Positions 4,078 through 47,330 of a stretch of 64,000 nt of DNA are shown here, piece after piece. A program made the translations under genes and the position numbers. The notes beneath the pieces are model-generated. The model was not told the origin of the DNA. It worked only from the letters and a program-made list of their open reading frames with translations, and searched no databases. Source of the DNA: Candidatus Avigastranaerophilus sp. (GTDB lineage Bacteria; Muiribacteriota; Ozemobacteria; Ozemobacterales; Ozemobacteraceae); contig JAZRWI010000089.1 in the NCBI GenBank assembly GCA_045599645.1, forward strand, positions 33,657 to 97,656. The letters are read 5' to 3'. Position 1 is the first letter of the stretch. Every line of letters begins with the position of its first letter.

Positions 4078-5370
4078 ATGGAAGAAAAAACCTTAAATAG
4101 CGAAAATAGAATCCTTCAGGCTATGGAAGGTAAGCTTTATGTTTTCCCTGAATCTAGAAACTATTTAATTATTATTTCAGTGGTAATAGTTGTTTTTGCA
4201 TTATGTGTCTGGGGGGTAAAAGGAAAAGTTAATGAGTATGTAAAAGGTGTCGGCATTATTACAACAATGACAAACTATACGCCTGTAACAAGCTTTTGCG
4301 ATGGGCTGATTGAATATCTTGATGTAAATGAAGGCGATGAAGTTATATGTGGACAAACTATTGGAAAAGTTTTTTCTATTGATGTCTATATTGAAGTGAT
4401 GAATATAAGAAAAGAGTTAGATATACATAATAAAAGACTTAAATTTTATCAGACCTCTCTTGAAAATATAAAAATTCGGAAAAAAGAAGTTTCTGATGCT
4501 AGCGTACGATATATTAAGGAAAATCTGGCTCGAATTAATAACCAGATAAAATGGTTCAGTGCTTATATAGAAAAATTGGAAACTGTTTCAAAGCGTGGGG
4601 CTGTTCCCTCTAATCTTGTTGCTGATACAAAATTTAAATTTGATTCAATCTTAGAAAATAAAGCTTTGCAGGAATTTGCTTTGATTGAGAATAAGCTGAA
4701 ATTAGAAGAACAATTGGCGAATTTGGATTTTGAATTAGACAAATATCAGGTGGAATTAGAAGAAATAAAAATAAAAGCCGAGGAAGCTTATTCTAAGTAT
4801 GTTAGATCAGGATATATTTTTGCCAGGGATACTGGTAAGGTTGCAGAAATTACAGCACCAAAAGGCGATCAGGTAAAAAATGGTGATACAGTATTATATT
4901 TGATAACTGAAAAAAATGATGATGCGCTGGTAGAAGTAACAGCTTATTTTCCCTTTAAGGATGTAAGAAAAATAGAAAAAGGTATGAAGGTCAGAGTTAT
5001 TCCTTCATATATAAAATTTGAACACGACGGTGCCATTTTGGGAACAGTTGTCTCTATAGATAGAGATGTTGTATCTGACAAAAAATTACAGCGATTGTAT
5101 AAAAGTGAAACTTTGTCACAGCAATTATTTTCACAAAACGATAATTTACCAGTAAGAGTAACTATTTTTCTTGAACAGAACAGTAAGTCTCCTAGCGGTT
5201 TTAATTGGACAACAGGGATTGGACCAGAAATTAAAATAAAGGATAATACATTATTTTCTGCACTGGTTACTGTTAATCAGGTTGCTCCATTTGAGCTTTT
5301 GTTCGGTAAAATTCAAAAATCTGTATTTGGTAAAAATGAGCAAATGACTTTGGAGAAAATTAATGAATAG
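4078..5370 (+). CDS. HlyD-family membrane-fusion / secretion adaptor protein
   Basis: 430 aa. It has an N-terminal TM anchor (LIIISVVIVVFALCVWGV). Lipoyl-like hairpin motifs (GLIEYLDVNEGDEVICGQTIGKV and GKVAEITAPKGDQVKNGDTVL) flank a long coiled coil. It overlaps the next ORF by 8 nt. Confidence 0.85.
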   Translation: MEEKTLNSENRILQAMEGKLYVFPESRNYLIIISVVIVVFALCVWGVKGKVNEYVKGVGIITTMTNYTPVTSFCDGLIEYLDVNEGDEVICGQTIGKVFSIDVYIEVMNIRKELDIHNKRLKFYQTSLENIKIRKKEVSDASVRYIKENLARINNQIKWFSAYIEKLETVSKRGAVPSNLVADTKFKFDSILENKALQEFALIENKLKLEEQLANLDFELDKYQVELEEIKIKAEEAYSKYVRSGYIFARDTGKVAEITAPKGDQVKNGDTVLYLITEKNDDALVEVTAYFPFKDVRKIEKGMKVRVIPSYIKFEHDGAILGTVVSIDRDVVSDKKLQRLYKSETLSQQLFSQNDNLPVRVTIFLEQNSKSPSGFNWTTGIGPEIKIKDNTLFSALVTVNQVAPFELLFGKIQKSVFGKNEQMTLEKINE

Positions 5371-12484: not shown

Positions 12485-13693
12485 ATGGCAAATTCTAAAG
12501 TTATTTTAATCGTTAACTGCGGTAGCTCTTCTCTTAAGTATGCTCTTATCAGAATGCCAGAACGTGAACAGCTCGGCAAGGGTCTTGTAGAAAGAATCGG
12601 CCTTGAAATGGGTCATCTTGAACAGAAGGCTAATGGTAAGGTTTATGAAGTTAATCAGAAGATTGAAACCCACAAGGTTGCAATGGAACTGGTTATGAAG
12701 GCTATTACCGATTCAGAAAAGGGTATCATCAAGGATACTAAGGAAATCGCAGCTATCGGTCATCGCGTTCTCCATGGCGGTAAGTATTACTATGATTCAA
12801 TCATTGTTAATGCTGATGTTAAGAAAGCTATTAAGGACTGCTTCGAACTCGGTCCATTACACAACCCGGCTAACCTCATGGGTATCGAAGCTTGTGAAGC
12901 TGCAATGCCAGGCGTTCCAAATGTTGCCGTTTTTGATACTGCTTTTGGTATGTCAATGCCGGAAAAAGCTTACCTCTATGCTATTCCTCACGAATATTAC
13001 GAAAAATATTCTATCCGCCGCTACGGTTTCCACGGAACCAGCCACAAGTTTGTTTCCAACGAAGCTATCAAGTTTGCTAACCTTGATCCCAAGAATGCAA
13101 AGGTTATCGTTTGCCACCTCGGCAACGGCGCCAGCGTTTCTGCTTCAATCGGTGGTAAGTGCGTAGATACTTCTATGGGTCTCACTCCTCTCGAAGGCCT
13201 TATCATGGGCACCAGAAGCGGTGACGTAGACCCGGCAGTTCTTCAGTTCATCATGAACAAGGAACACCTTACTGCTGACCAGATGCTCAACATCCTCAAC
13301 AAGAAGTCTGGCGTTCTCGGTATGAGCGGTGGAGTTTCCAGCGACTTCCGTGATGTCGGTAAGGCTAAGGCTGAAGGCAACCATCTTGCTGAAGTAGCTC
13401 TTGATGCTTTCATTTACAGAGTTGTTAAGTATGTTGGTGCTTACACAGCAGCAATGAACGGCGTTGACGCAATCTGCTTCTGCGCTGGCGTTGGTGAAAA
13501 TGACAAGGCTGCTAGAAAGCAGATTTGTGAACACCTGAGCTATCTGGGTGTTAAGATTGATGATAATGCAAATGATATCCGCGGTGAAAGAAGAGTTATC
13601 TCTGCTGCAGATTCTAAGGTTAAGGTTATCCTTCTTCCAACAAACGAAGAACTTCAGATTGCTATCGATACCTTCGAACTTACTGGTAAGTAA
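12485..13693 (+). CDS. ackA: Acetate kinase
   Basis: 402 aa with hallmark motifs ILIVNCGSSSLKY, GHRVLHGG, YGFHGTSH and LPTNEEL. An AAAGGAA RBS precedes the start. A strong terminator follows. Confidence 0.97.
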   Translation: MANSKVILIVNCGSSSLKYALIRMPEREQLGKGLVERIGLEMGHLEQKANGKVYEVNQKIETHKVAMELVMKAITDSEKGIIKDTKEIAAIGHRVLHGGKYYYDSIIVNADVKKAIKDCFELGPLHNPANLMGIEACEAAMPGVPNVAVFDTAFGMSMPEKAYLYAIPHEYYEKYSIRRYGFHGTSHKFVSNEAIKFANLDPKNAKVIVCHLGNGASVSASIGGKCVDTSMGLTPLEGLIMGTRSGDVDPAVLQFIMNKEHLTADQMLNILNKKSGVLGMSGGVSSDFRDVGKAKAEGNHLAEVALDAFIYRVVKYVGAYTAAMNGVDAICFCAGVGENDKAARKQICEHLSYLGVKIDDNANDIRGERRVISAADSKVKVILLPTNEELQIAIDTFELTGK

Positions 13694-18125: not shown

Positions 18126-18846
18126 CTTGGTATCGAAGTGTAGCTAGTAAAGCTTTAAGCTTTAAGCTATAGGCTCCAAGCCCCAAGCCCCAAGCCCCAA
18201 GCCCCAAGCCCCAAGCTATAAGCTATAGGCCCCAAGCCCCAAGCTATAAGCTATAGGCCCCAAGCCCCAAGCTATAAGCTATAGGCTCCAAGCTTCTAGC
18301 TTCAGGCTTCCGACGGCCTGCTTTCTCGGCCAAGAGCTAAAAGCTAAGAGCCAAAAGCCTATTGAACCAAACCTTATACCCGCTTGGTATCGAAGCACTG
18401 TCCTGCTTCTAGCTTCAAGCTTCAAGCTTTAAGCTATAGGCTCCAAGCTCCAAGCCCCAAGCTCCAAGCTCCAAGCTCCAAGCCCCAAGCCCCAAGCTAT
18501 AAGCTATAGGCCCCAAGCTCCAAGCCCCAAGCTATAAGCTATAGGCTCCAAGCCCCAAGCCCCAAGCTATAAGCTATAAGCTATAGGCTCCAAGCTTCTA
18601 GCTTCTAGCTTCAGGCTTCCGACGGCCTGCTTTCTCGGCCAAGAGCTAAAAGCCAAAAGCCTATTGAACCAAACCTTATACCCGCTTGGTATCGAAGCAC
18701 TGTCCTGCTTCTAGCTTCAAGCTTCAAGCTTTAAGCTATAGGCTCCAAGCCCCAAGCCCCAAGCCCCAAGCTCCAAGCTCCAAGCTCCAAGCTATAGGCT
18801 CCAAGCTTCTAGCTTCTAGCTTCTAGCTTCTAGCTTCAAGCTTATC
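18126..18846. repeat. Composite element: three heptamer arrays separated by two copies of an about 100-bp core
   Basis: The left end at 18126-18155 equals 11491-11520. The arrays lie at about 18149-18310, 18406-18612 and 18705-18846 and use the units CTTTAAG, CTATAAG, CTATAGG, CTCCAAG, CCCCAAG, CTTCTAG and CTTCAAG. The cores lie at 18306-18409 and 18614-18708 and differ by a 7-nt indel. Confidence 0.95.
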
Positions 18847-33575: not shown

Positions 33576-36500
33576 ATGTTGTGCAAAAGAAAAAGAGAAT
33601 TTAATCAAAAATTCTGCTTTAAAAGGGATTTGAAGAGCAGAATAGTAGCTATTACTGTTGCGTTGTCTGTTTTTTTACAGACGACAACAGTTTCCTTTGC
33701 TGCTGCTCCGACAATAAACAATGGCTCTGGCATTGACAGCACCGAGGCTGGTGTTGATAATATTGCTTTTGGCGATTACAGCAGCTCCTTTGGCTATATG
33801 AATGTTGCAACAGGCTCGAACAGCAGCGCTTTTGGTTATAAGAATTTTTCTGATGGCAGTGGCAGCGTGGCTTTGGGCTTTTCTAATCTTGCTGCAGGTT
33901 ATTCAGCAATAGCAGTTGGTAGTGGTAATGTCGTTGAAGGCTATAACGGAACTGCTTTTGGCTTTGGGAATAAATCACTAGATGTATATAGCAATGCAGT
34001 TGGAGCTAGCAATATTGCTAAGGGCGAAGAAGCCAGCGCCTTTGGTTTTACTAACCAGGCAAATGGTGGTGGCAGCAATGCTTTTGGTTCTAACAATATT
34101 GCAAATGGTGATTATTCCAATGTTTTTGGGGATTCTAATACCGCTGATGGCAAAGAAAGCAATGCTATTGGTTATAATAACAATGCAACAGGCAATAATA
34201 GTATTGCTATAGGAAGTGGGAATACAACTAGTCTTGATTCTAGTATCGCGGTTGGGGTTTCTAATGCTGCAAGTGCTAACTATGCCAGTGCTTTTGGTTT
34301 TTCTAACTATGCAAAAGCCAGTGGTAGCAATGCTTTTGGGAAAGGCAATATTGCCTCTGGCACTTTTAGCAATGCTTTTGGTGTTGAAAACAAGGCCATA
34401 GGCAATAATAGCAGTGCGTTTGGCTCTAACAATGAAGCAGTTGGTGAAAAAAGCCTGGCTGTAGGTTACGAAAACCATTCGAATGGTTTATATAATTCTG
34501 CTTTGGGATACCAGAACTATTCTAATGGAGATAACAGCTTAGTTGCCGGTTATGGTAACAAGGCTAATGGTAAAAACAGTTATGTTATTGGTTTTCAAAA
34601 CATTGCTGATGGTGAAACAGATATTGCATTAGGTAGCTTTAATGAAGTTTATGCCACAGACACTTATGTTTTCGGTAGTTATAATTATGTTGAAGAAGGA
34701 AACAATAATGTTGCTCTTGGTGAATATAATGACATTTTATATGGCGAAAACAACACTCTGGTAGGCCATTACAATAGCGCTGCTGATGGTGATGATAATG
34801 TTGCTGTAGGTAGCAATAATAGAACAAAAGGTAATAATAATATTGCAATAGGCAATATGAACAATGCTGTAGATAACAGTATTGCAATAGGCTATCAGAA
34901 TAACTACAAGGGCTACAATAGCTCTACTCATAGACATGAATTCTATACACCTGGTGCAAACAGCACTTCGGTCGGTTATAAGAATGTCGCAACAGGCACC
35001 AACAGCAACGCTTTCGGTTATGCTAATATTTCAACAGGCGATAACAGCAGTGCCTTTGGTAATCAAAATACTGCATCTGGATCATACAGCAGCACCTTTG
35101 GTTATAATAACGCTGCTGATGGAACTTTCAGTTCTGCAATAGGGGTTGGTAATATTGCTCTTGGCACAGAAGCCTTTGCTTTCGGTAGTGGTAATGATGC
35201 CATCGGTTATATGAGCACTGCCATGGGTCATCATAACGAAGTTCCGGCCAGTTACGGCATTGCCATCGGTTACATGAATAAATCCCGTGATGAATATGGT
35301 GTTGCCATCGGTGTTTATAATGAGGCTAACGGAAACATCAGCAATGCTATTGGTGGCTACAACAGAGCCTATGGTGAACTAAGCAGTGCTTTTGGTAGAG
35401 ACAACGTTGCTTCTGCTGCAAACGCCAACGCCTTTGGGCGAAACAATAATGCAATGGGTGAAAACAGTAGCGCCTTTGGTTATAACAATACTGCTACAGA
35501 TTCCAACAGCAGTGCCTTCGGGTATAACAATACTGCCAATGGCATTAATTCCAGCGCCTTAGGTTCTTCCAATACTGTAAATGGTCAGGAAAGCACTGTT
35601 ATTGGTTATTGGTCAAAAGTTACTGGTAATGCATCCACCGTTGTTGGACGTGCTAGTAATGTAACAGGCAATAATAGCAATGCTTTTGGTTACTACAACG
35701 TTGTTACTGCTTCTTTATCAAGTGCTATAGGCAGTAGCAATGTGGCTAAGGGATATATCAGTAATGCTGTCGGCTGGAGCAACAACGCTAACGAAGAAGG
35801 CGGTCAGGCCTTTGGTGGTTATAATACAGCAGATGGTAACCGCAGCAGCGCCTTTGGTTATTGGAATATTGCTACAGGTAGTCAAAGCAATGCTTTTGGT
35901 TATTATAACAAGGTTAATAATAACAATAGTAATGCTTTTGGGAATGGCAATAACATCTATAGTAGCAGCAGCAATGCTTTCGGTAGAGCTAATACTGCTT
36001 CTGGCAGCTATTCCAATGCTTTTGGTTCCGAAAATAAAACTTATGGTAGCAATAGCAATGCTGTTGGTCATTCAAACGAATCAATAGGCTCTAAGAGCAG
36101 TGCTTTTGGTTACGATAATACAGCTACCGGCAGTAACAGTAGCGCTTTCGGGTATGCGAATAAAGCTGAGGGCTCGAACAGCAATGCTTTTGGTAATCAG
36201 AATACGGCTGGCGGTATTTATAGTGTTGCTGTTGGTTACAATAACTCAGCCATGAATGAAAAAAGCATCGCTTTTGGGTATGGCAGCATCGCATCTGCTG
36301 CTTACACTACGGCCATCGGTTATCAGAATAAGGCCATGGATTTCGGAAGTGTTGCCATTGGTTCTGGCAATGAATCATACAATAATCATACTATAACCAT
36401 GGGTAAAAATAATATTGCTACAGGCGGTGTTGCTGTTGGTAGCGATAATAAGATAATCGGGGCGATTGCTTTTGGTTCAGGCAATACAGCTACGGGCACA

Positions 36501-39500
36501 TCAGGAAGTGCGATTGGTTATAATAATATTGCTATAGGTGAAAGAGGCACCGCTGTTGGTTATGTGAATAAAGCAACGGCTGGTTGGACCACTGCTGTTG
36601 GTTATCAGAATGAAGCTAATGGTTTTACAAGCAGTGCCTTTGGTTATAAGAGTATAGCCAATGGCGACTATAGCAGTGCTATAGGTAAGGAAAATCAGGC
36701 TCTTGGCAATAGCAGCAGTGCTTTTGGCAATAGCAACACTGCTTCTGGTTCCTTCAGTAATGCTTTTGGCTATAATAATATAGCCTCTGCTTCTGATACT
36801 AACGCTTTTGGTGAAGGTAACAAGGCTTTAGGCAGTTATAGCAGTGCTTTTGGTAGAAGCAATACTTCATCTGGTAGTAGCAGTACTGCTTTTGGGGTTG
36901 ATAATAAGGCTTCAGCCGCAAATAGTCATTCTTATGGCGGTTCAAACCAGGCCTTAGGCGAAAATAGTAATGCCTTCGGTTTTACAAACCAGGCAACAGG
37001 CCTGAACAGCAGTGCTTTCGGCAAGGAAAACAAAGCCATAGATAACAACACAAGTGCTTTTGGTCTTTGCAGTGTTGCTTCAGGTACTGGTAGTAACGCT
37101 TTTGGTTTTTATGATGTTGCTTCAGGCAGCGATAGTAATGCCTTTGGTAAAAGTAATAATGCTTTGGGTAACAGCAGCAATGCCTTCGGTGGTGGTAATA
37201 CTGCTTCAGGTGGAAACAGCAGTTCATTCGGTGTTGGTAATACTTCTTCAGGTTCTGACAGTAGTGCTTTTGGTTTCAGAAATCAGGCAACAGCTCTTAA
37301 CAGCAGTGCTTTTGGTAAGGAAAATAAAGCTATTGGTTTGTATACCAGTGCTTTTGGTTATAGCAACACTGCTTCTGGAACCTTTGGCAATGCCTTTGGC
37401 TATGGAAATATTGCTTCAGGCTCAGACAGCAACGCCTTTGGTAAAGAAAACAAGGCTTTGGCAGAAAACAGCAGTGCCTTTGGTAAAGGCAATACTGCAT
37501 CTGGTGGAAGCAGCAATGCTGTCGGTAGTGGAAATCAGGCATTAGAAGGCAACAGCAATGCTTATGGCACAAATAACAAGGCCAAAATAGAATATAGTAG
37601 TGCCTTTGGTTGCAGCAATACTGCAGATGGCAAATTTGGTAATGCTTTTGGTTATCTCAACTCTGCTTCAGGTTTTGACAGTAATGCTTTTGGTAAAGAA
37701 AACAGAGCTCTTTCAACAAACAGCAGCGCCTACGGTAAAGGCAATGTTGCTTCCGGAACAAGCAGTAATGCCTTTGGTCTGACTAATGTTGCTTCTGGTG
37801 ATAACAGCAATGCAGTTGGTGGAAGCAATTATGCCTTATACGGTGGCGGCAATGCTTTTGGCTCTGGCAACTATGCTTCATCTACAAACGCTAATGCTTT
37901 CGGCCGCGATAACAAAGTTTATTCCCCATATACTGATGCTTTTGGCTCTGGCAATGTGGCATCAGGAAGCTTTGCCAATGCTTATGGTTATAACAACATT
38001 GCTTCTGGCGTAGACAGCAACGCCTTTGGTAAAGACAATAAAGCTCTTGAATCAAACAGCAGTGCATATGGTAGAAGCAATACTGCTGAAGGTATTTATA
38101 GCAATGCTTTTGGTTATGGCAATACAGCATCAGGCAGTAGTAGCAGTGCTGTCGGTCGTGAAAATTATGTGGTAGGGACAGAAAGCAGTGCTTTTGGTAG
38201 TGGTAATAAAGCTTACAATAGTTTCAGCAGTGCTTTTGGTCAGAACAATTTGGCTACAGGTAGTTACACCAGTGCTTTTGGTTGTCAGAATGTTGCTTCT
38301 GGCGCGAAAGCAGTAGCCATGGGTATCAAGAATGTTTCTGACGGTGAAAATAACGTATCTGTCGGTAATAATAACAAAGCCAATAATTATAATTCTAATG
38401 CTTTAGGTATCGATAACACATCTTCAGGCAATAAGAGCAATGCTGTTGGTGTTGCTAATATCTCTACAAGAAGTGAAAGCAGTGCTTTCGGTAACAACAA
38501 TAAGGCTTATGCTGATTACAGCAGCGCCTTTGGTCATAATAATACTGCTTCAGCTACTTATAGCAGCGCCTTTGGTCATGACAATACTGCTTCTGGATCA
38601 AACAGCAGTGCTTTTGGTTACAGCAATATGGCTGCTAGTAACAACAGCAGTGCCTTTGGTGGTAAAAATCAGGCAACAGGTCTCAATAGCAGTGCTTTTG
38701 GTTTAAACAATATTGCTTCCGAAAACTATAGCAGTAGCTTTGGTCAGGGAAATTCTGCTTTGGCTGGTAGCAGCAGTGCTTTTGGCCGTGGTAATATTGC
38801 CTCAGGTTTTGATAGTAGTGCTTTTGGTAGAGAAAACAAGACAATGGGTAGCGATAGTTCTGCCTTTGGTAGAAGTAATACTGCTTCTGGCTCTAAAAGT
38901 GTTGCATTTGGTTACGGCAATACCGCTTCGGGTGCTTCCAGTATAGCTATTGGTAGCGGCAATGTGGCTAATGACAGCGATGGCAGCGCTTTTGGTTATA
39001 ATAATATTTCAACAGGTAACAACAGCAGTGCCTTTGGTTATAGCAATAATGTTTCAGGCATACAAAGTAGCGCTTTTGGTGCTTCCAATAAGGTAACCGG
39101 CGGTTTAAGCAATGCCTTTGGTTATGGCAATATTGCTTCAGATACATATACTAGCGCATATGGTTATATGAATGCAGTAGAAGGTAATAACAGCAGCGCC
39201 TTTGGTTATCGCAATACAGCTTCAAAAGCTACTGCTATCGGTATTTCCAATATCTCACAGGGTGGCAGTGCTGCTTTGGGTAGTAATAACATAGCCACAG
39301 GCTCCAGTAGTATTGCCGTTGGTTTGAACAACAAATCACTGGCTCAGAATACAAGCACCTTTGGCTCTGACAATATTGTTACCGGGAACATTGGTAATGC
39401 TATTGGTAGTAGCAACAAGGTATCCGGTTCAAGCGGCAATTCTTTTGGTAGTAGTAATGAAGTTACCAGCTCCTGGAGCAATGCCTTTGGTAGTAAGAAC

Positions 39501-42500
39501 AAATCTACTGGCGGCTACAGCAACGCTTTTGGTCATAATAATATTGCTTCAGGTCTTTATAGCAGCGTATTTGGTAATGAAAGCCAGTCTATTGCTAATG
39601 GTAGTCTTGCTCTTGGTTATCAGGCTGTTGCAAAGGATGCTAATACTGTTTCCTTTGGTCATGCTGCAGAAGATTTGAATGTCAGTGGCACAGCCTATGG
39701 CACAGATAAGTATAGCAAGCTTGTTTATGTTGCTTCAGGTTCTGTAAATACAGACGCTGTAAACTACGGCCAGATAAAGAGCAGCTTTGCTTCAGCAACC
39801 TATAATGCTGCTGACAACAAGCTTGTTTTGAAGGCTGTAGATGGCACTACCAGTGAGCTCACTATAACAAGTGAAGCTGTAGGCGATGACTTGACTTTGA
39901 TCAAGAATTCCCTCGGCCTGCTTACTGCTAATCCAAACACCATCAACAGCAGCGGTTCAATCGCTATCGGTTCAAAGAACATTTCAGGTACTACAGACAA
40001 TCTTTCAATTGCAATGGGTTTCCAGAATACATCTAATGGCTCTGCTAGCATGGCAATAGGTTCTAATAACTCTGCTATAGCTATGAACTCTTCTGCTGTC
40101 GGCTCATTGAATAAGGCTAATAATCCTTACAGCGCTGCTATGGGTTATAACAATACAGCCGAAGGCACTTATGCTAATGCATTTGGTGTTAACAATACTG
40201 CGAAAGGCCTCAATACTTCGGTTTATGGCTATAATAATACTGTTGAAGGCAGCTTCAGTATGGCTTTTGGTCTGGATAATACTGTTGAAAATACAAATAA
40301 TACGGCATTTGGTTTAAGCAATACCTCTAATGGCAATTATAGTAATGCTTTCGGTTACAACAATGAATCAACAGCCAAGCATTCTAATGCTATTGGTGCT
40401 TACAATGTAGCATCTGCTGAATACAGCCTTGCTTACGGTTATCATAACCTTGCATACAATAAAAGCTCAAGCGCATTTGGTAATGGAAATACTGCAAGGG
40501 GAGATTCTTCCGTTGCTTTCGGTCTTGGCAATAGTACCTTTGCTGTAAATGCCAGTGCCTTGGGTGCAGGCAACAATGCCTATGGACTTATGTCCAGTGC
40601 TATTGGTGTTGTAAACGAAGCCAGCGGAGATTACTCCAATGCTTATGGTGTCAGTAACTATGCTTTGGCAGAAGGCGCCAGCGCATTCGGTTATGTAAAT
40701 GCTGCCTATGGTTTATTTAGTAATGCAATAGGTGCTGAAAACCAGGCATTCGGCAATTTCAGCACAGCCATAGGTTATCAGGCTGTTGCATATGATGATA
40801 ACACAATTTCCTTCGGCCACAGTAAAGGCGATTTGGATCTTGAAGGTAATCCTTATAGCACTGATAGATACAGCAAGCTTGTTTATGTAGCTTCAGGTTC
40901 TGCAAATACCGATGCTGTAAACTACGGCCAGATAAAAGTTGCCAGAGACGGTAAGTATGTTGTAGCAACAGAAACCTTAAGCAATAACATTCTTTCTATT
41001 GATAATGCCATTAATGGAATGAGTACTTACGTAACAGCTTCTGGTCTTAATGCTGCCAGCCAAAAGATTGTTAATGTTGCTGACGGTGTAGATGCCAATG
41101 ATGCTGTAAATGTTAAGCAGATAAGTCTTACCAGTGACGGTATTCATGTAGCAAAAGCCAGTTCTTTGAGCAGTAATATGCTTTCTCTAGATTCTGCTAT
41201 TGGCGATATGAGCAGTTTCAGCACCAGCAACTATTTTGCTAAGAGCTCAAATGTTGCAGACAATATTAAGAGTCTTGATACTGCGATTGGTGATATGAGC
41301 GGCTTCAGCACCAGCAACTATTTTGCCAAGAGTAATACCAGTGTTGCAACCAACCTGAAGAATCTTGATACAGCTATTGGTGAACATACTGCTAGTAGCG
41401 CCGTTCATATAACTTCTGCTGAAAGAGACGCCTGGAATGCTAAGCAGACTGCTCTGAATGCTGACCAGACATTGGCAGTCAATTCCGGTATTACTGCTGA
41501 CATGGTAACAAGGTATAACTCTTATATTACCGCTTCAGGCTTCAATGCAAACAGCAATAAGATCATAAATGTTTCTGCCGGCACATCAGATACGGATGCA
41601 GTTAACTACAGCCAGATAAAGAATGCTTATGTTGGCGTCGCTTACGCTTCAGCAACAAATAAGCTTACTCTGACCAAGGTTAATGGCGAAACAAGTGAAA
41701 TTGAAATTTCCAGTGGAAGCGATGAAGACCTTGCAAGAAAGGTTGAACAGAATAAGCAGGATATCAGCAATAACACTGCAGCTATCAATACCAATACGGA
41801 TAACATCAATAAAAACAAGACCAGTATTGCCAAGAATTCTGATGATATCAAGGCTAATGCTGATAATATCAACAAAAATAAGACCAGTATTGCCAAGAAT
41901 TCTGATGACATCAAGGCCAATGCAGATAACATCAACAAGAACAAAACCAGTATTGCCAAGAATTCTGATGATATCAAGGCCAATGCAGATAACATCAACA
42001 AGAACAAGACTAGTATTGCCAAGAATACTGAAGCTATAAACGCTAATGCCGCAAATATCAGCAAGAACACAACCAATATCAACGCAAATGCTGTTGATAT
42101 TACTAAGATAAAATCAGATCTCGGTATGGTCTCAACCAAGCCGCAGAATCAATCTGATGGTAATGGGTGCATCACTATTGGTTCCGGCAACATTGCCAGT
42201 GGTTCCGGCGCTGTTACCATGGCTATTGGTAGTGACAACAAGGTTTCTGGAGCTAATTCCATAGCTATTGGCTACGGCCACATAATAAACGGCAGCAATT
42301 CTGGCGCCTTTGGTGACCCGACAGACATTGAAGCTGATAATGCCTATGCTATCGGTAACAGCAATAATATCAGCGGTAATGGCAGCTTTATTATTGGTAA
42401 TAACAGCAATATCAGCGGCGCAGGTAGTTTTGTCATGGGCACAAATAGTAAGGTAACTAATGATAGCAGCTTTGTTGTTGGAAGCAATAGCACTGTAAGC

Positions 42501-43298
42501 GGCAAGAACTCAATTGCCATGGGCAGCAATGCCGTTGTTGAACACAATAATGCTGTAGCTCTTGGTGAAGGCTCAAAGACCTATGCAGATAACAGTGTTT
42601 CTGTTGGCACCAAGGAAAAGCAGCGTGTTATCCAGAATGTTGCATCAGGCACTATGGATACAGATGCTGTAAACTACGGCCAGATGAGGGATTATGTTGC
42701 TAATAACAGTACTGGTGCTGCGGATATGAACCAGATTAACAAGAACTTTAACAGACTTGATAACAAGATTAACAGCGTCGGTGCTGGTGCAGCAGCTCTT
42801 GCCAGTCTCAGACCTATTGACAGTGACAAGGATGTTAAGTGGAGCGGCGGTATTGGCTATGGTAATCTCCATGGCAAGTCTGCTGCAGCTGTTGGCGTAT
42901 TCTACAGACCGTCACCTGATGTTGTCTACAGTATTGGCGCCAACGCCGGCGGAGAAGATAACATGGTTAATGCCTCTATCAACTTCGCCTTCGGCCATGT
43001 AGACAGAAAGAAAAATAATCAGACTCAGACTGTTTATAACATCGTTACCCAGAGCAACGAAGAAAATGAAGAAAGGTTTGATTACCTTACAAATGAAAAT
43101 GCGGAATTAAAGGCAAAGGTATCAGAACAGGATTTGAGAATAAAACGTCTGGAACGCCTTATTATAAAGATGTCTGAAAACCAGAAAAATGATGATGATG
43201 ACGACGAAGAAGCCAGACCGTCTGAACGCATACCGCAGAAGCCGTCATGGCCAGCTATAAAATGCTCAGATGGTAAGGCTATGGTGCCGAATATTTAA
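33576..43298 (+). CDS. Second giant trimeric autotransporter adhesin
   Basis: 3240 aa with an AAGGAAG RBS and the signal peptide ..IVAITVALSVFLQTTTVSFA. It has the same head-repeat architecture, with neck junctions at about nt 39640 and 40800. A stalk contains 63-bp tandem repeats. The YadA-type anchor lies at nt 42762-42998 and is followed by a 99-aa tail. Confidence 0.93.
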   Translation: MLCKRKREFNQKFCFKRDLKSRIVAITVALSVFLQTTTVSFAAAPTINNGSGIDSTEAGVDNIAFGDYSSSFGYMNVATGSNSSAFGYKNFSDGSGSVALGFSNLAAGYSAIAVGSGNVVEGYNGTAFGFGNKSLDVYSNAVGASNIAKGEEASAFGFTNQANGGGSNAFGSNNIANGDYSNVFGDSNTADGKESNAIGYNNNATGNNSIAIGSGNTTSLDSSIAVGVSNAASANYASAFGFSNYAKASGSNAFGKGNIASGTFSNAFGVENKAIGNNSSAFGSNNEAVGEKSLAVGYENHSNGLYNSALGYQNYSNGDNSLVAGYGNKANGKNSYVIGFQNIADGETDIALGSFNEVYATDTYVFGSYNYVEEGNNNVALGEYNDILYGENNTLVGHYNSAADGDDNVAVGSNNRTKGNNNIAIGNMNNAVDNSIAIGYQNNYKGYNSSTHRHEFYTPGANSTSVGYKNVATGTNSNAFGYANISTGDNSSAFGNQNTASGSYSSTFGYNNAADGTFSSAIGVGNIALGTEAFAFGSGNDAIGYMSTAMGHHNEVPASYGIAIGYMNKSRDEYGVAIGVYNEANGNISNAIGGYNRAYGELSSAFGRDNVASAANANAFGRNNNAMGENSSAFGYNNTATDSNSSAFGYNNTANGINSSALGSSNTVNGQESTVIGYWSKVTGNASTVVGRASNVTGNNSNAFGYYNVVTASLSSAIGSSNVAKGYISNAVGWSNNANEEGGQAFGGYNTADGNRSSAFGYWNIATGSQSNAFGYYNKVNNNNSNAFGNGNNIYSSSSNAFGRANTASGSYSNAFGSENKTYGSNSNAVGHSNESIGSKSSAFGYDNTATGSNSSAFGYANKAEGSNSNAFGNQNTAGGIYSVAVGYNNSAMNEKSIAFGYGSIASAAYTTAIGYQNKAMDFGSVAIGSGNESYNNHTITMGKNNIATGGVAVGSDNKIIGAIAFGSGNTATGTSGSAIGYNNIAIGERGTAVGYVNKATAGWTTAVGYQNEANGFTSSAFGYKSIANGDYSSAIGKENQALGNSSSAFGNSNTASGSFSNAFGYNNIASASDTNAFGEGNKALGSYSSAFGRSNTSSGSSSTAFGVDNKASAANSHSYGGSNQALGENSNAFGFTNQATGLNSSAFGKENKAIDNNTSAFGLCSVASGTGSNAFGFYDVASGSDSNAFGKSNNALGNSSNAFGGGNTASGGNSSSFGVGNTSSGSDSSAFGFRNQATALNSSAFGKENKAIGLYTSAFGYSNTASGTFGNAFGYGNIASGSDSNAFGKENKALAENSSAFGKGNTASGGSSNAVGSGNQALEGNSNAYGTNNKAKIEYSSAFGCSNTADGKFGNAFGYLNSASGFDSNAFGKENRALSTNSSAYGKGNVASGTSSNAFGLTNVASGDNSNAVGGSNYALYGGGNAFGSGNYASSTNANAFGRDNKVYSPYTDAFGSGNVASGSFANAYGYNNIASGVDSNAFGKDNKALESNSSAYGRSNTAEGIYSNAFGYGNTASGSSSSAVGRENYVVGTESSAFGSGNKAYNSFSSAFGQNNLATGSYTSAFGCQNVASGAKAVAMGIKNVSDGENNVSVGNNNKANNYNSNALGIDNTSSGNKSNAVGVANISTRSESSAFGNNNKAYADYSSAFGHNNTASATYSSAFGHDNTASGSNSSAFGYSNMAASNNSSAFGGKNQATGLNSSAFGLNNIASENYSSSFGQGNSALAGSSSAFGRGNIASGFDSSAFGRENKTMGSDSSAFGRSNTASGSKSVAFGYGNTASGASSIAIGSGNVANDSDGSAFGYNNISTGNNSSAFGYSNNVSGIQSSAFGASNKVTGGLSNAFGYGNIASDTYTSAYGYMNAVEGNNSSAFGYRNTASKATAIGISNISQGGSAALGSNNIATGSSSIAVGLNNKSLAQNTSTFGSDNIVTGNIGNAIGSSNKVSGSSGNSFGSSNEVTSSWSNAFGSKNKSTGGYSNAFGHNNIASGLYSSVFGNESQSIANGSLALGYQAVAKDANTVSFGHAAEDLNVSGTAYGTDKYSKLVYVASGSVNTDAVNYGQIKSSFASATYNAADNKLVLKAVDGTTSELTITSEAVGDDLTLIKNSLGLLTANPNTINSSGSIAIGSKNISGTTDNLSIAMGFQNTSNGSASMAIGSNNSAIAMNSSAVGSLNKANNPYSAAMGYNNTAEGTYANAFGVNNTAKGLNTSVYGYNNTVEGSFSMAFGLDNTVENTNNTAFGLSNTSNGNYSNAFGYNNESTAKHSNAIGAYNVASAEYSLAYGYHNLAYNKSSSAFGNGNTARGDSSVAFGLGNSTFAVNASALGAGNNAYGLMSSAIGVVNEASGDYSNAYGVSNYALAEGASAFGYVNAAYGLFSNAIGAENQAFGNFSTAIGYQAVAYDDNTISFGHSKGDLDLEGNPYSTDRYSKLVYVASGSANTDAVNYGQIKVARDGKYVVATETLSNNILSIDNAINGMSTYVTASGLNAASQKIVNVADGVDANDAVNVKQISLTSDGIHVAKASSLSSNMLSLDSAIGDMSSFSTSNYFAKSSNVADNIKSLDTAIGDMSGFSTSNYFAKSNTSVATNLKNLDTAIGEHTASSAVHITSAERDAWNAKQTALNADQTLAVNSGITADMVTRYNSYITASGFNANSNKIINVSAGTSDTDAVNYSQIKNAYVGVAYASATNKLTLTKVNGETSEIEISSGSDEDLARKVEQNKQDISNNTAAINTNTDNINKNKTSIAKNSDDIKANADNINKNKTSIAKNSDDIKANADNINKNKTSIAKNSDDIKANADNINKNKTSIAKNTEAINANAANISKNTTNINANAVDITKIKSDLGMVSTKPQNQSDGNGCITIGSGNIASGSGAVTMAIGSDNKVSGANSIAIGYGHIINGSNSGAFGDPTDIEADNAYAIGNSNNISGNGSFIIGNNSNISGAGSFVMGTNSKVTNDSSFVVGSNSTVSGKNSIAMGSNAVVEHNNAVALGEGSKTYADNSVSVGTKEKQRVIQNVASGTMDTDAVNYGQMRDYVANNSTGAADMNQINKNFNRLDNKINSVGAGAAALASLRPIDSDKDVKWSGGIGYGNLHGKSAAAVGVFYRPSPDVVYSIGANAGGEDNMVNASINFAFGHVDRKKNNQTQTVYNIVTQSNEENEERFDYLTNENAELKAKVSEQDLRIKRLERLIIKMSENQKNDDDDDEEARPSERIPQKPSWPAIKCSDGKAMVPNI
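41799..42030 (+). repeat. In-frame 63-bp tandem repeat (about 3.5 copies) in the stalk of adhesin 2
   Basis: Copies start at 41799, 41862, 41925 and 41988. Each encodes DNINKNKTSIAKNSDDIKANA. Confidence 0.9.
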
Positions 43299-43348
43299 TT
43301 CATAATTCATAATTCATAATTCATAATTCATAATGCATAATGCATAAT
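43296..43348. repeat. Heptamer array TAATTCA/TAATGCA beginning at the stop codon of adhesin 2
   Basis: (TAATTCA)x5 followed by (TAATGCA)x2, starting with the TAA stop at 43296-43298. Confidence 0.9.
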
Positions 43349-43376
43349 TGATTGTTGATTGATTGGGTTTGGTGTT

Positions 43377-43585
43377 GCTTCGACCAAGTTTGTGCCAATG
43401 CCTGGATTGAGAATTGAAAATTGAGAATTGAGAATTTTTTGTTTTTTTGCTGCTTCGACCAAGTTTGTGCCAATGCCTGGATTGAGAATTGAAAATTGAG
43501 AATTGAGAATTTTTTGTTTTTCTGCTGCTTCGACCAAGTTTGTGCCAATGCCTGGATTGGGTATTGAGAATTGAGAATTTTTGGG
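43377..43585. repeat. 75-bp tandem repeat x3, each containing nested GAGAATT heptamers
   Basis: GCTTCGACCAAGTTTGTGCCAATGCCTGGATTGAGAATTGAAAATTGAGAATTGAGAATTTTTTG.. starts at 43377, 43452 and 43527. Track ORFs 43321..43686(-) and 43328..43624(-) are repeat artefacts. Confidence 0.9.
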
Positions 43586-43664
43586 TTTAGTGCTGTTGAC
43601 GCGCCCTGCGAGGCCTTCCTCCAATTGGGGGAAGGTGGCACAGCGAAGCTGTGACGGATGAGGG

Positions 43665-44455
43665 CTATAGAATCACCCCTATACATCCACTGCTATAAAA
43701 TAGGTCTTAGGTCTTAGGTCTTAGGTCTTAGGTCTTAGGTCTTAGGTCTTAGGTCTTAGGTCTTAGGTCTTAGGTTTTAGGGTTCTGGCTTTTCTCGGCG
43801 GTAAGCTGGTGGTCGATAGCTGATGGCTGCTCTTTCTCGGCCAACAGCCAAAACCTAACAGCGTATAAAATCATCCTTATACATCCACTGCTATAGAATA
43901 TATCTGGCTTTCTAGCTTCTAGCTTCTGGCTTTCTGGCTTCTAGCTTCTAGCTTCTAGCTTCTGGCTTTCTGGCTTCTAGCTTCTAGCTTCTAGCTTCTA
44001 GCTTCTAGCTTCTGGCTTTCTAGCTTCTAGCTTCTAGCTTCTAGCTTCTGGCTTTCTAGCTTCTAGCTTCTAGCTTCTAGCTTCTAGCTTCTGGCTTTCT
44101 AGCTTCTAGCTTCTAGCTTCTGGCTTTCTGTCTTCTAGCTTCTAGCTTCTAGCTTCTAGCTTCTAGCTTCTAGCTTCTGGCTTTCTGTCTTCTGGCTTTC
44201 TGTCTTCTGGCTTTCTGTCTTCTGGCTTTCTGACTTCTAGCTTCTGGCTTTCTAGCTTCTGGCTTTCTGGCTTCTGGCTTCTGGCTTCTGGCTTTCTGGC
44301 TTTCTGGCTTCTAGCTTCTAGCTTCTGGCTTTCTGGCTTCTAGCTTCTAGCTTCTAGCTTCTGGCTTTCTAGCTTCTGGCTTTCTAGCTTCTAGCTTCTA
44401 GCTTCTAGCTTCTAGCTTCTAGCTTCTGGCTTTCTGACTTCTAGCTTTCGACTCG
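43665..44455. repeat. Composite element of a second family: 39-bp motif, (GGTCTTA)n array, about 120-bp core, 39-bp motif, about 545-bp array of AGCTTCT/GGCTTTCT units
   Basis: The motif CTATAGAATCACCCCTATACATCCACTGCTATAAAATAG at 43665-43703 recurs at 43863-43901. The GGTCTTA array lies at 43702-43785. The core at 43786-43904 contains CTTTCTCGGCCAACAGCCAAAACC and CCTTATAC, as in the 18-kb cores. The long array at 43905-44448 ends at the -35 box of the glycosyltransferase gene. Confidence 0.95.
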
Positions 44456-44474
44456 CGGCTTGCTGTGCTATAAT
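44447..44474 (+). promoter_or_regulatory. Putative sigma70-type promoter with extended -10, positioned for a leaderless transcript
   Basis: TTCGAC (44447-44452), a 16-nt spacer, then TGcTATAAT (44466-44474). ATG 44481 lies 7 nt after the -10 element. Confidence 0.4.
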
Positions 44475-46949
44475 CTAGGTATGTTAATAGCTAATTTATC
44501 TAGTTCAGTATTGCCTTCACAGAAGGCTAACAGTGTTCAGGTCATGCGTATGAGTGACGCCTTTACCAGATTGGGTCACTCTGTTATTCTTTTTGGCAGA
44601 ATGCCTGATAATGCTGCTGAAAGACTGAATAATACTGCCATAAGAAAATATTACGGCACAAAGGCTGATTTTGATATAAGGCTTGTGCATTGCAGGTTGA
44701 AGGCCAGGTTTTGGTCTGGCTTGGAATACGGTTTTAAAACTTTTTTGTCAGTTTTAAAATTACAAAATATGTCGTTTAAAAAATTACAAACTTCTCGAAA
44801 TTCTTTTTGGGGGCAGCAAGGTGTGTCATTTAAAAAATTACAATCTCCCCAAGGTTTTTTCTGGGTTTGTCGAAATATGTCATTTAAAAAATTACAGTTA
44901 TTTCGAGGTTTATTTGATTTGTTTTATGGGCGCAATCTGTATGCTCTGATGTTTTGTAATTTTTTTAATAAACCAATAATTTATGAAAGTCATGCTTCGC
45001 CATCATGTGGTCGCAAAAAACTTGAAGAATACTTGTTTAACCAGTCGAATTTTGCCGGCCTGGTGGTAATAAACGAAGCTTTGCATGACTACTATAAAGA
45101 AAACTTTAAGATATTCAGAGATTGCCCTGAAAAGCTAATGGTCTGCCCTGATGGCGGTGAAGAAGCTATTGCCAGAGTAGTTGGAGTGGCTAAAAATCCG
45201 GGTAACCACCCTACTGCTGGCTATGCTGGAAGTCTGTATCCTGGTAAAGGCATAGAAATGATTGCAAAGCTGGCTGAAGCAAGACCTGGTGTAAATTTCG
45301 TTGTTGCGGGTGGCACTGCTGAGCAGGTTGGTCTGATGAAACAAAAATGGCCTTTTATAGACTTACAGTTTAAGGGATTTGTAAAACCATCGGAGCTGGC
45401 TAGCTTTTACAATGAATGTGATATTCTGCTGGCGCCCTATCAGCAACAGGTTTACTCAGATGATAATGAAAAGCGTGATTTGTCTAAGTGGATGTCTCCG
45501 TTAAAGATCTTTGAATACATGGGAACCGGGAAGGCGATGATTGTCTCGGATTTGCCGTGCTTCAATGGTATTTTGCGCGATGAGTCAAATGCTTTGCTTG
45601 TTCGCTGTGATGATACTGCCAAATGGCTTGAAGCTATTGATAAACTTATTGCAAACAAAGACTTGTGCAAAAGTCTGAGTAATAAGGCCTATGCTGATTT
45701 ACAAAGCCAATATACCTGGAAGGCCAGGGCTGAAAGAATTATTGCAGGTTTGTATGCTAAGCACATTGAGACCTCAATAGCTTCTTTGCAAAGTGGCAAA
45801 CCAGTAATTTTGCATATCGTGGGTGACCTCAATGTTGGCGGAGCCGAAAGAACGATGCTTAACCTGCTGCCTTTGCTTAATAAAGGCGATTATGAGCATC
45901 GCATACTGACTTTGTTTGAAGAGGGCGCTCTGGCTGATGATTTCAGAAAAGCTGGTATAAACGTAGAAACATTAGGCTTCTCAAAAAGATTTACAGCCTT
46001 TTTGAACCCTTCTAACCTGATAAGGCTGATAAATACAATTAAAGCCCGAAAGCCGCGGCTTATCCAGACCTGGATGTATCATTCCAATAATCTTGTAAAT
46101 GCCTTGCATTGCTTCTTCAAAGAAATACCTGTTGTGAATAATATCCGTCACAATGACCCGAACGCGGGAACGCTTAAAACCTATGCTTCTGCCGTTGCGG
46201 GAGCGATGCCTGCTTGGATGGCGCCAAAAGCTGTTGTGTGCTGCTCTGAGGTGGCAAAAAAGAATCATATTGCCATTGGTTACCCGAAGGATAAGATGGC
46301 TGTGATTCCTAATGGCTTCGTTGTGAAAGGCTTATCAAAGGAAGAAGCCAGGAAAAGCTGTGTGGAAGCTCTGGCTGTGCCGGCTGAAAACAAGCTTGTG
46401 ATTGTTGCTGGCAGATATTGCAGCGAAAAGGATTTTCCGAATTTTGCGGCTGCAGCGTGTTTGATTTTGAAGAATCGTTCCGATGTAACCTTTTTGTTGT
46501 GCGGCAAAGGTTTGGAAGAATCTAATGCTGAGCTTGTTAAGCTACTTGAAAATAACAATGCAAAAGATAATTGCATGCTGCTGGGCCACAGAAACAATAT
46601 AGAAACATTTATGGCGGCCGCTGATTTGCTTGTTTCTGCTTCTGCTTCAGAGGCTTTTCCGAATGTTATTGCTGAGGCAATGTCGGTAGGCACTCCATGT
46701 GTCGGGACTGATGTTGGGGAAACCAGGGCGATAATTGGTGCTGCTGGTCTGGTTGTTCCAGCCAAGAATCCGCAAGCGCTTGCTGACGCTGTTTTGTCTA
46801 TGCTTTCAAATGCTGAAGCATACAATGATTTTGCTTCTAGAACAAAAGCTCATATTGCTGTCAATTACTCGCTGGAAGCCACAGCTAAGCGATATTCTGA
46901 ATTATGGCAACGGATAACAGGATTTATGCGGATAGAGCAGGGCAAATAA
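44460..46949 (+). CDS. Fused double GT4-family glycosyltransferase
   Basis: 829-aa ORF. The likely start is ATG 44481 (MLIANLSS..KANSVQVMRMSDAFTRLGHSV). There are two GT-B/GT4 modules (about aa 8-430 and 445-829), the second with ILHIVGDLNVGGAERT and an E..FPNVIAEAMSVGTPCV motif. The last 13 codons lie inside a repeat element. Confidence 0.85.
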   Translation: MLCYNLGMLIANLSSSVLPSQKANSVQVMRMSDAFTRLGHSVILFGRMPDNAAERLNNTAIRKYYGTKADFDIRLVHCRLKARFWSGLEYGFKTFLSVLKLQNMSFKKLQTSRNSFWGQQGVSFKKLQSPQGFFWVCRNMSFKKLQLFRGLFDLFYGRNLYALMFCNFFNKPIIYESHASPSCGRKKLEEYLFNQSNFAGLVVINEALHDYYKENFKIFRDCPEKLMVCPDGGEEAIARVVGVAKNPGNHPTAGYAGSLYPGKGIEMIAKLAEARPGVNFVVAGGTAEQVGLMKQKWPFIDLQFKGFVKPSELASFYNECDILLAPYQQQVYSDDNEKRDLSKWMSPLKIFEYMGTGKAMIVSDLPCFNGILRDESNALLVRCDDTAKWLEAIDKLIANKDLCKSLSNKAYADLQSQYTWKARAERIIAGLYAKHIETSIASLQSGKPVILHIVGDLNVGGAERTMLNLLPLLNKGDYEHRILTLFEEGALADDFRKAGINVETLGFSKRFTAFLNPSNLIRLINTIKARKPRLIQTWMYHSNNLVNALHCFFKEIPVVNNIRHNDPNAGTLKTYASAVAGAMPAWMAPKAVVCCSEVAKKNHIAIGYPKDKMAVIPNGFVVKGLSKEEARKSCVEALAVPAENKLVIVAGRYCSEKDFPNFAAAACLILKNRSDVTFLLCGKGLEESNAELVKLLENNNAKDNCMLLGHRNNIETFMAAADLLVSASASEAFPNVIAEAMSVGTPCVGTDVGETRAIIGAAGLVVPAKNPQALADAVLSMLSNAEAYNDFASRTKAHIAVNYSLEATAKRYSELWQRITGFMRIEQGK
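44748..44900 (+). repeat. In-frame 54-bp tandem repeat (about 3 copies) inside the first GT4 module
   Basis: Copies start at 44769, 44823 and 44877 ((A/G)TGTC(G/A)TTTAAAAAATTACA(A/G)). A partial copy lies at 44748. The encoded peptide is (M/V)SFKKLQ + 11 aa. Confidence 0.9.
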
Positions 46950-47330
46950 CCGATTTTTTAGCCTCGGTTTAAGTAGGTGTGTGGTTTGCCAGCGTAGGTT
47001 TTTGCTTGGCGAAAGTAAGCAGGAAAACCTCCCTTGGTCCCTCCTTGGGAAGGAGGGTTAGAAGTGAAATAGCCGATGAGCAGGGCAAATAACCGATTTT
47101 TTAGCCTCGGTTTAAGTAGGTGTGTGGTTTGCCAGCGTAGTTTTTTTGCTTGGCGAAAGTTAGCAGGAAAACCTCCCTTGGTCCCTCCTTGGGAAGGAGG
47201 GTTAGAAGAGAAATAGCCGATGAGCAGGGCAAATAACCGATTTTTTAGCCTCGGTTTAAGTAAGTGTGTGGTTTGCCAGCGTAGGTTTTTGCTTGGCGAA
47301 AGTAAGCAGGAAAACCTCCCTTGGTCCCTC
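46935..47330. repeat. 143/144-bp tandem repeat x3 (third copy truncated), each with a GC-rich palindrome
   Basis: Units start at 46935, 47078 and 47222 (GAGCAGGGCAAATAACCGATTTTTTAGCCTCGG..). Each contains CCCTCCTT-GGG-AAGGAGGG. The first unit supplies the last codons and the stop of the glycosyltransferase gene. Track ORFs 46958..47365(-) and 47220..47429(+) are artefacts. Confidence 0.92.

Follow-up and report, generated by a model that had tools for sequence, protein, structure and literature searches.

The window analysed here, a 64,000-nucleotide stretch of DNA from an uncultured gut Riflebacterium, contains a spacer of 1,182 bp (~1.2 kb) that runs from the stop codon of an adhesin gene, adhesin 2, to a double GT4 glycosyltransferase (GT) gene. 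Adhesin 2 (ORF 33576..43298; 3,240 aa) is of the trimeric-autotransporter type, with YadA head, stalk and anchor domains. The GT carries the Pfam domains Glyco_trans_1_4 and Glycos_transf_1, in two stretches each, plus Glyco_transf_4. The whole spacer consists of repeats: an array of TAATTCA units, a 75-bp unit, a REP-like hairpin and two stretches in which a motif is followed by an array (Table 1). The TAA stop of adhesin 2 lies inside the first unit of the TAATTCA array, and each 75-bp unit comprises four ATTGAGA/ATTGAAA heptamers and a T run. A sequence scan of the plus strand found no terminator-like site between the adhesin stop and the GT. Apart from the arrays that follow the two motifs, TRF reports heptamer arrays in the window at 43296 (the TAATTCA array), 33393, 18150-18843 and 11515.

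Table 1. Repeat, promoter and coding features between the adhesin 2 stop codon and the end of the glycosyltransferase gene.
Feature	Position	Strand	Basis
(TAATTCA)5(TAATGCA)2 array	43296..43349	+	TRF period 7, 7.7 copies, 95% matches
75-bp unit x2.7	43376..43579	+	TRF period 75, 96% matches; repeat family D4
REP-like hairpin GCCTTCC..GGGGGAAGG	43601..43664		Summed contig depth in relatives' metagenomes
Motif a, equal to the 3' half of the core (profile positions 55-97)	43665..43703	+	nhmmer E=1.4e-5
(TAGGTCT)x11.6 array	43701..43781	+	TRF, 98% matches
Decayed array units, then core box CTTTCTCGGCCAACAGCCAAAACCTAACAGC	43782..43862	+	nhmmer match 43818-43907, E=3.8e-19
Motif b	43863..43901	+	33/39 identity to motif a; direct reading
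Mosaic array, 74 units, 545 bp	43903..44447	+	TRF periods 7, 29, 36; unit parse
Decayed heptamers (..GACTCGC GGCTTGC TG) over the -35 and spacer region	44448..44465	+	Relatives' alignment
Putative extended -10 box (TGcTATAAT) 6 nt upstream of the ATG	44466..44474	+	Invariant in 4 lineages
Double GT4 glycosyltransferase, 822 aa, start ATG 44481	44481..46949	+	Pfam; homologue N-termini

The original prediction described a motif and an array on either side of a core, in parallel with an element at 18 kb of the window, and each of these features was found where it had been placed. Motifs a and b both precede a heptamer array and have in common the exact 18-mer TATACATCCACTGCTATA, which occurs twice in the window against 0.11 expected. 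Motif a ends in TGCTATAAAATAGGT. Motif b consists of three 14-nt sub-units, each led by TATA (TATAAAATCATCCT / TATACATCCACTGC / TATAGAATATATCT). Sharing of core sequence with the elements at 11 and 18 kb, also predicted, extends to an exact core box, CTTTCTCGGCCAA, at 11840, 18321, 18630 and 43832; CCTTATAC is present at 43875-43882. Parsing of the long array bore out the proposed mixture of 7-bp and 8-bp units: its 74 units are 42 AGCTTCT, 19 GGCTTTCT and 13 variants (7 GGCTTCT, 4 GTCTTCT and 2 GACTTCT). The order of the units is aperiodic, and no perfect run exceeds 6-7 units.

A nine-core profile detects both the cores at 11 and 18 kb (type 1) and the core at 43.8 kb (type 2), with E-values of 1e-19 to 1e-29. 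It also retrieves motif a as a half-core and, elsewhere, only two copies on one related MAG contig (L054); by locus, the family is found three times in the window and once in L054. Blocks common to both types are TTTCTCGGCCAA, an AGCC/AAAAGC run, and C(C/T)TATAC followed by TG(G/C)TAT(A/C)GAA. With the reading TGGTATAGAAT, the L054 copy falls between the two types. The 43.7-kb element had been taken for a second composite family, with an alignment of all cores as the proposed check. Run as the nine-core profile, that check grouped the element with the 11- and 18-kb type and yielded no distinct family.

Relatives show how fluid this locus is. In L117, whose GT is 88% identical, four type-2 modules of core, motif and array stand in tandem, with arrays of 5-15 units, so whole modules can duplicate. 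In L118 and L119 (GT 71% and 67% identical) a type-1 core is followed by 11 and ~4 AGCTTCT/GGCTTTCT units, respectively. As both types occur at the GT locus in relatives, they are interchangeable at one site. Profile and locus comparison together make the 43.7-kb element a type 2 sequence variant of the type 1 family at 11 and 18 kb. Across the four lineages that share the adhesin-GT arrangement, the array adjoining the GT has ~4, 5, 11 or 74 units, and contigs of relatives display one-unit indels and skips of 319-376 bp. The final units of the long array (GGCTTTCT GACTTCT AGCTTTC) are common to L118 and L119.

A conserved RNA structure in the cores was considered and rejected. Hairpin potential is present around TTTCTCGGCCAA in each type, in shifted registers and with no covariation. 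Folding 11 cores to a consensus gives a weak structure (-5.4 kcal/mol), with two pairs that show double changes and many broken pairs. Single-sequence folds have z=-1.8 and -1.5, and Rfam gave no match better than E=0.67.

Copy numbers were estimated by aligning gut metagenomes that contain relatives at ~90% identity to the region; the values are summed contig depths from mixed communities and give rough copy numbers. In runs X2, X3 and X6, the hairpin segment 43603-43669 has summed depths of 3633, 3730 and 332, compared with 18, 12 and 6.6 for the GT gene. The motif segment 43666-43702 has depths of 1262, 297 and 392 in the same runs, compared with 18, ~12 and 6.6. Over four metagenomes of relatives, the motif reaches 25-70 times the depth of the GT gene and is carried by 19-34 contigs per run. 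The edges of the high-copy segment are sharp in four runs, at 43664/43666 and at 43702, and delimit a motif of 37 bp.

The surroundings of the motif vary from copy to copy. On the left it adjoins the core in 6-11 contigs per run and the REP-like hairpin in 2-4. To its right lie at least five kinds of sequence: an AGCTTCT-type array, other nnCTTCn arrays, a TAATTCA-type array, unique DNA, or a further module of hairpin and motif. The REP-like hairpin is a separate dispersed repeat of very high copy number that, in the spacer, stands in for the 5' half of the core. The order of hairpin then motif recurs in relatives, and the hairpin is inverted in L117 (~9150-9215). Orientation towards genes is equally variable. 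The 43.7-kb element lies between tandem genes and the 18-kb element between divergent genes, while the 11-kb copy is flanked by two minus-strand genes and runs antisense to them, and the L054 copy sits between convergent genes. The last two copies rule out a motif that is always aimed at a downstream gene start. The motif is a lineage-specific, many-copy and sharply bounded module without a fixed relation to genes.

Searches for a wider distribution or a mobile origin returned little. A contig scan with CTTTCTCGGCCAASAGC, a pattern too short for the purpose, hit 116 loci that are almost all due to chance, the L054 copy being the only true member according to the profile. The profile found no family copy in the 20-kb syntenic locus of L124, and neither a strict type-2 motif nor a gapped pattern covering both types found a copy in JGI metagenome contigs. 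Phage and plasmid collections gave no match and hence no sign of an origin from a known mobile element. No inverted repeat pairs occur in 43250-44520, no terminal inverted repeats or target duplications indicative of transposition were found, the 37-bp motif contains no palindrome, and no associated transposase was identified.

The lineage of these sequences can be read from neighbouring proteins. MurA of L124 shares 87% identity with proteins from MAGs that bear the name Candidatus Riflebacteria, and a GltD-like protein is 88% identical between L054 and L124. These identities rule out the melainabacterial origin that the 'Avigastranaerophilus' label of L054 would imply, and the label is probably that of a mis-binned contig.

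Three gene callers put the start of the GT at ATG 44550, 23 codons too far downstream. Because 11 homologues (36-69% identity) begin at a methionine aligned with ATG 44481 (MxIAxLSSS), and one more carries that methionine internally, comparison of N-termini identifies ATG 44481 as the true start, in agreement with the original prediction. The segment 44466-44474, TGcTATAAT, is a perfect match to TGnTATAAT, and, counted from this -10, ATG 44481 begins at the seventh base. Four lineages agree completely over the 24 nt that lead up to the ATG (GGCTTGCTGTGCTATAATCTAGGT) and over the initial 52 coding nucleotides; the 128 coding nucleotides that follow are 87%, 91% and 71% identical, and the array end upstream varies. 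This pattern indicates that the putative GT promoter is under strong constraint, although the invariant 76-nt block could instead be a recent recombination tract. The sequence TGNTATAAT occurs 12 times in the window compared with 4.6 expected, a count reached in 0 of 100 shuffles, and both the DnaJ/TPR/CSD gene and the AAA_14 gene are preceded by it at 38-50 nt. Owing to this enrichment and to its position before two other genes, TGNTATAAT is a credible promoter type in the host organism.

The promoter had been proposed as TTCGAC-16-TGcTATAAT, abutting the end of the array. Its -10 element stands, being perfect and conserved. The -35 element does not, as TTCGAC matches TTGACA at 2 of 6 positions, went unreported by a consensus scan, and falls within decayed heptamers that read TTCAGC or TTCGGC at this position in relatives. 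In the alignment of relatives, the end part of these heptamers (GGCTTGCTG) is conserved and the -35 position is not. No Shine-Dalgarno (SD) sequence is present at a working distance, the only SD-like letters, AGGU, abutting the AUG. Given this lack and a -10 box 6 nt before the AUG, the GT mRNA is predicted to be leaderless or to have a leader of 2-3 nt, which is plausible. Extended -10 leaderless promoters are similar in having TGnTATAAT, a poor -35 and an AUG that begins at the seventh nucleotide past the -10, a likeness that here is one of sequence only. Within ~170 kb of the lineage, the GT and its orthologues are the only genes with a -10 box 5-8 nt before the start. Among RNA runs, none contains the 5' region of the GT or the core. 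Metatranscriptomes bearing the lineage contain only an HU transcript, at a depth of 2-5, and the absence of the array from them carries no weight.

The position of the GT right after the adhesins, which had been emphasized in the original prediction, is correct, but the link appears secondary: in relatives the GT belongs to a methyltransferase (MT) operon with no adhesin nearby. In L122, a 50%-identical GT directly follows the MT, its GTG start lying 13 nt past the MT stop. The flanking proteins of this comparison are 75-88% identical, with AckA at 88%, the MT at 81% and FecR at 75% between L122 and the window. L124 has the order AckA-MT-DnaJ with nothing between, neither GT nor island. In the window, ~30 kb separate the MT from the GT and contain an AAA_14 ATPase, a two-gene defence candidate and the two giant adhesins. 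Since an island appears to have split the MT-GT operon, the pairing of GT and adhesin is, by gene order, secondary.

This gene order suggests how the GT may have obtained its promoter. The ~30-kb island would first have split the ancestral MT-GT operon, and repeat modules would then have filled the resulting gap. Finally, the 3' end of a motif copy would have become fused to the AUG and would now serve as the GT promoter. The promoter TGCTATAATCTAGGT matches the end of motif a at 13 of 15 positions, a likeness that spans 15 nt only; in this comparison, one of four, 3 of 5000 shuffles did as well. The probable source of the GT promoter is the 3' end of a copy of the motif.

Taken together, the spacer is probably a mosaic of modular, many-copy intergenic repeats followed by a GT with its own extended -10, and the length of the array would be at most modulatory. 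The module set comprises a ~60-nt core box (TTTCTCGGCCAA plus AGCC/AAAAGC units), a motif of 37-39 bp with three TATA-led 14-nt sub-units, often a REP-like hairpin, and 7/8-bp arrays built on nnCTT(T)Cn. Arrays would change in length via slippage and unequal recombination, and whole modules of core, motif and array would duplicate in tandem. Exchange of modules among dispersed copies would account for the different types and numbers found at one locus in close relatives. The TGcTATAAT box 6 nt before the AUG would drive the GT, from a leaderless or nearly leaderless (2-3 nt) message. On this view the long array resembles unstable filler and is no established switch of expression.

A regulatory role for the array had been suggested in the original prediction, in which array length could modulate the promoter context of the GT. 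In a fuller form of this reading, the long array would act as a contingency rheostat whose length sets the upstream promoter context, through curvature, UP-like contacts or the distance to an upstream site, and thereby tunes a GT that serves the adhesins. Position is what speaks for this: the end of the array is 19 nt from the -10 box, and its size ranges from ~4 to 74 units between lineages at the GT locus. There is also a precedent in Haemophilus influenzae hmw, where heptamer tracts before surface genes act as rheostats (PMC12721329, PMC8262952). However, the promoter and the start are identical at any array length, and an identical promoter found with ~4, 5, 11 or 74 units shows that the array is dispensable for the predicted GT core promoter, a finding that does not bear on modulation. 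The array also lies outside the segment from -10 to AUG, and from a place upstream of the core promoter the number of units cannot alter the -10-to-start geometry. In hmw-type contingency loci a homogeneous tract lies between promoter elements or between promoter and start; at the GT the tract combines five unit types and sits upstream of the -10 of the proximal promoter, and the comparison would hold only if an upstream promoter were the real one. The same modules occur in every gene orientation, including places where no gene start follows, and the GT of relatives is not linked to adhesins. Tuning of the GT by array length therefore seems unlikely.

An upstream promoter is the basis of a second alternative. 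The GT could be transcribed from a box in motif a or b (TAGAAT/TAAAAT), or by read-through from adhesin 2, placing a CU-rich array in a long 5' UTR where it would affect folding, processing or translation of the mRNA; the TATAAT before the AUG would then be a minor or inactive promoter. Type-2 motifs do carry TAGAAT or TAAAAT 7-9 nt before the array start, the plus strand offers no terminator-like site on the way to the GT, and the (ATCTTTC)n tract of H. influenzae is transcribed within a 5' UTR as part of a hairpin cut by RNase III (PMC12721329). Type-1 motifs at the GT locus of L118 and L119, by contrast, read TCGAAG and have no -10-like box. Nor is an SD present at a working distance, as the AGGU abuts the AUG. 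No purine-rich partner for the array was found downstream, the covariation in the cores is unconvincing, and RNA contigs do not include the array, at a coverage too low to weigh. An hmw-like leader of this kind is likewise unlikely.

The preferred reading, in which the GT has its own extended -10, can also be extended. The 37-bp motif might be a portable outward promoter (TGCTATA(A/G)AAT) that scatters cassettes of promoter and CU-rich repeat RNA, with transcription starting at the first unit of the adjoining array. The GT promoter would be an exapted copy, and the upstream modules would add an hmw-like long leader in a second, array-containing GT transcript, whose length-dependent folding would tune expression as in hmw. 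This broader scheme is quite improbable.

An error of assembly as the source of the long array or of its length, with a real locus as short as in relatives, is highly unlikely: the 545 bp come from one metagenome assembly of a strain present in no public run (best share of words 0.16), the Logan contigs of relatives all break within the array, those of the GT starting at 44439, and relatives carry 4-15 units, but the unit order is aperiodic and internally consistent, the 100-kb contig crosses several other arrays, and the recurrence of these units at this position in four separate assemblies shows that the array as a feature is real.

As a mosaic of intergenic modules, the spacer shares traits with several known repeat systems. 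In the summary of Mrazek et al. (2007) given in PMC4679880, LSSRs have units of 5-11 nt, with heptamers predominant. The arrays described here consist of head-to-tail 7-nt units in non-coding DNA and have copy numbers that are unstable between close relatives, and they fit the STRR/LSSR class. Like cyanobacterial STRR/LSSR repeats, which have no established function, they are intergenic tandem heptamers with many unit sequences per genome and a copy number that shifts fast between close relatives. Unlike them, they mix 7- and 8-nt units, their host is a Riflebacterium and not a cyanobacterium, and they are coupled to a core box, a 37-bp motif and a REP-like hairpin in tens of copies, in modules that duplicate as a whole in tandem. 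Coupling to bounded many-copy modules, with tandem duplication and exchange, is what appears to set the arrays apart from the class.

Direct TAACTGA repeats occur in marine Beggiatoaceae, some Cyanobacteria and Bacteroidetes (MacGregor 2015, PMC4679880). Their units contain stop codons, and a regulatory role has been proposed for them, not shown (PMC4679880). Both they and the present arrays are intergenic heptamers that often lie just before starts without a canonical ribosome-binding site. TAACTGA sets have 2-6 copies of one unit genome-wide, whereas the present arrays have up to 74 units of many types, are accompanied by a separate conserved motif, and, at the GT, lie upstream of the -10 instead of between promoter and start.

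The phase-variable (ATCTTTC)n tracts of hmw1A and hmw2A, whose copy number is strain-dependent, are homogeneous, lie in the 5' UTR and form a hairpin with a G-rich arm that is processed by RNase III; by experiment, their length is inversely related to expression (PMC12721329, PMC8262952, PMC2424069). As at hmw, a CT-rich heptamer tract precedes a surface-structure locus with an adhesin and a glycosyltransferase. The tract described here differs in being a mosaic, in lying upstream of the proximal promoter, in belonging to a dispersed family, in having no pairing partner that could be found and in being known from sequence alone. The modules further resemble REP/BIME, REPIN and MITE elements (e.g. 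PMC3116915), as they are short, non-coding, strictly intergenic, present in tens of copies, lineage-specific and assembled into mosaics of several module types in either orientation. Unlike REP and MITE elements, the 37-bp motif lacks a palindrome and terminal inverted repeats, and neither kind of element is coupled to heptamer arrays.

Arrays of heptamers abound in some bacterial lineages and are not known to have a function or a mechanism of spread. Their coupling to modules provides a handle on how arrays are seeded and moved, as the module is an anchor that can be traced across genomes. The GT locus is also a natural series for the effect of an array, in which the promoter is identical and the units number 4, 5, 11 or 74. 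It may be a case of a repeat element donating a promoter to a gene orphaned by the insertion of an island. For annotation, wrong start calls are a risk in genes flanked by repeats and devoid of a Shine-Dalgarno sequence. A leaderless start, if true, would give the first hint that Riflebacteria express genes in this way. If the motif is in fact a portable promoter, its copies would amount to genome-wide, repeat-borne promoter donation, together with rheostats, in an uncultured phylum.

The REP-like hairpin beside the 37-bp motif, a sharply bounded module adjoining the heptamer arrays, is found repeatedly joined to this motif, and hairpin-motif modules also occur in tandem. In metagenomes of relatives, the hairpin reaches a summed depth approximately 50-300 times the level of single-copy genes; RNA contigs also contain it. 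Inside the motif, TAT-led boxes display a 14-nt (2 x 7) periodicity. The AAGAGCT/AAAAGCT units of the core resemble array units in inverted orientation. The heptamer arrays may be the source from which the conserved modules themselves arose.

The double GT4 glycosyltransferase (GT) gene that follows is annotated with a start 23 codons 3' of the conserved one in three assemblies, those of the window and of two relatives (loci L117 and L118). The start is likely called too far downstream by gene callers because the true AUG lacks a preceding ribosome-binding site. An in-frame repeat within the gene is present in three copies in the window, two in L117, and one each in L118 and L119 (a further relative), with no copies in GT homologues at ≤53% identity; contigs of relatives show a 63-nt skip at this position. 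The repeat is a variable insertion within a surface loop of the enzyme. Downstream of the GT gene, every unit of an array of 144-bp units carries a CCCTCCTTGGGAAGGAGGG hairpin, and further CCCTCCC/GGGAGG elements 3' of the array reach 47500.

Coordinates of repeats, gene starts, and the variable segment (window unless stated)
Feature	Position	Details
GT start, called vs conserved	44550 vs 44481	
GT start, called vs conserved	L117 10001 vs 9932	
GT start, called vs conserved	L118 317 vs 248	
REP-like hairpin	43601-43664	G5 run (GCCTTCCTCCAATTGGGGGAAGGTGGC...); inverted counterpart in L117 at about 9150-9215
TAT-led boxes, type 2 motif	43665-43901	TATAGAA.., TATACAT.., TATAGAA..
TAT-led boxes, type 1 motif	18360-18400	TATTGAA.., TATACCC.., TATCGAA..
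TGTC(G/A)TTTAAAAAATTACA x3	44768-44905	inside GT gene; encodes SFKKLQ-containing segments
144-bp unit x2.8	46935-47330	96% matches; directly 3' of GT stop codon
Antisense TGNTATAAT matches	21440, 23252, 29138, 35902	minus strand
Acetate kinase (AckA)	12485-13693	
Two type-1 cores	L054 (JAZUDR010000057.1) 4841-5153	from a GTDB representative MAG bearing the name Candidatus Avigastranaerophilus (Melainabacteria)
Variable segment	about 15134-47629	AAA_14/DUF4143 ATPase, DUF4869 two-gene module, 2 giant adhesins, repeat mosaics, GT

Four of the 12 matches to the promoter-box pattern lie antisense within the adhesin genes. Repeated codons may have produced them incidentally, but they are potential antisense promoters.

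Acetate kinase shares 75-77% identity with enzymes of Lachnospiraceae/Clostridia, which makes its horizontal acquisition from gut Firmicutes likely; this identity is well above expectation for Riflebacterium. Proteins of L054, a contig carrying family cores, are 88% identical to those of the Riflebacteria locus L124, so that contig is probably mis-binned or its MAG mislabelled.

The variable segment is missing entirely from the syntenic L124, where the order is AckA-methyltransferase-DnaJ/TPR/CSD. In L122, another syntenic locus, the methyltransferase and GT genes are directly adjacent. The segment is a variable surface/defence island whose flanks are conserved.
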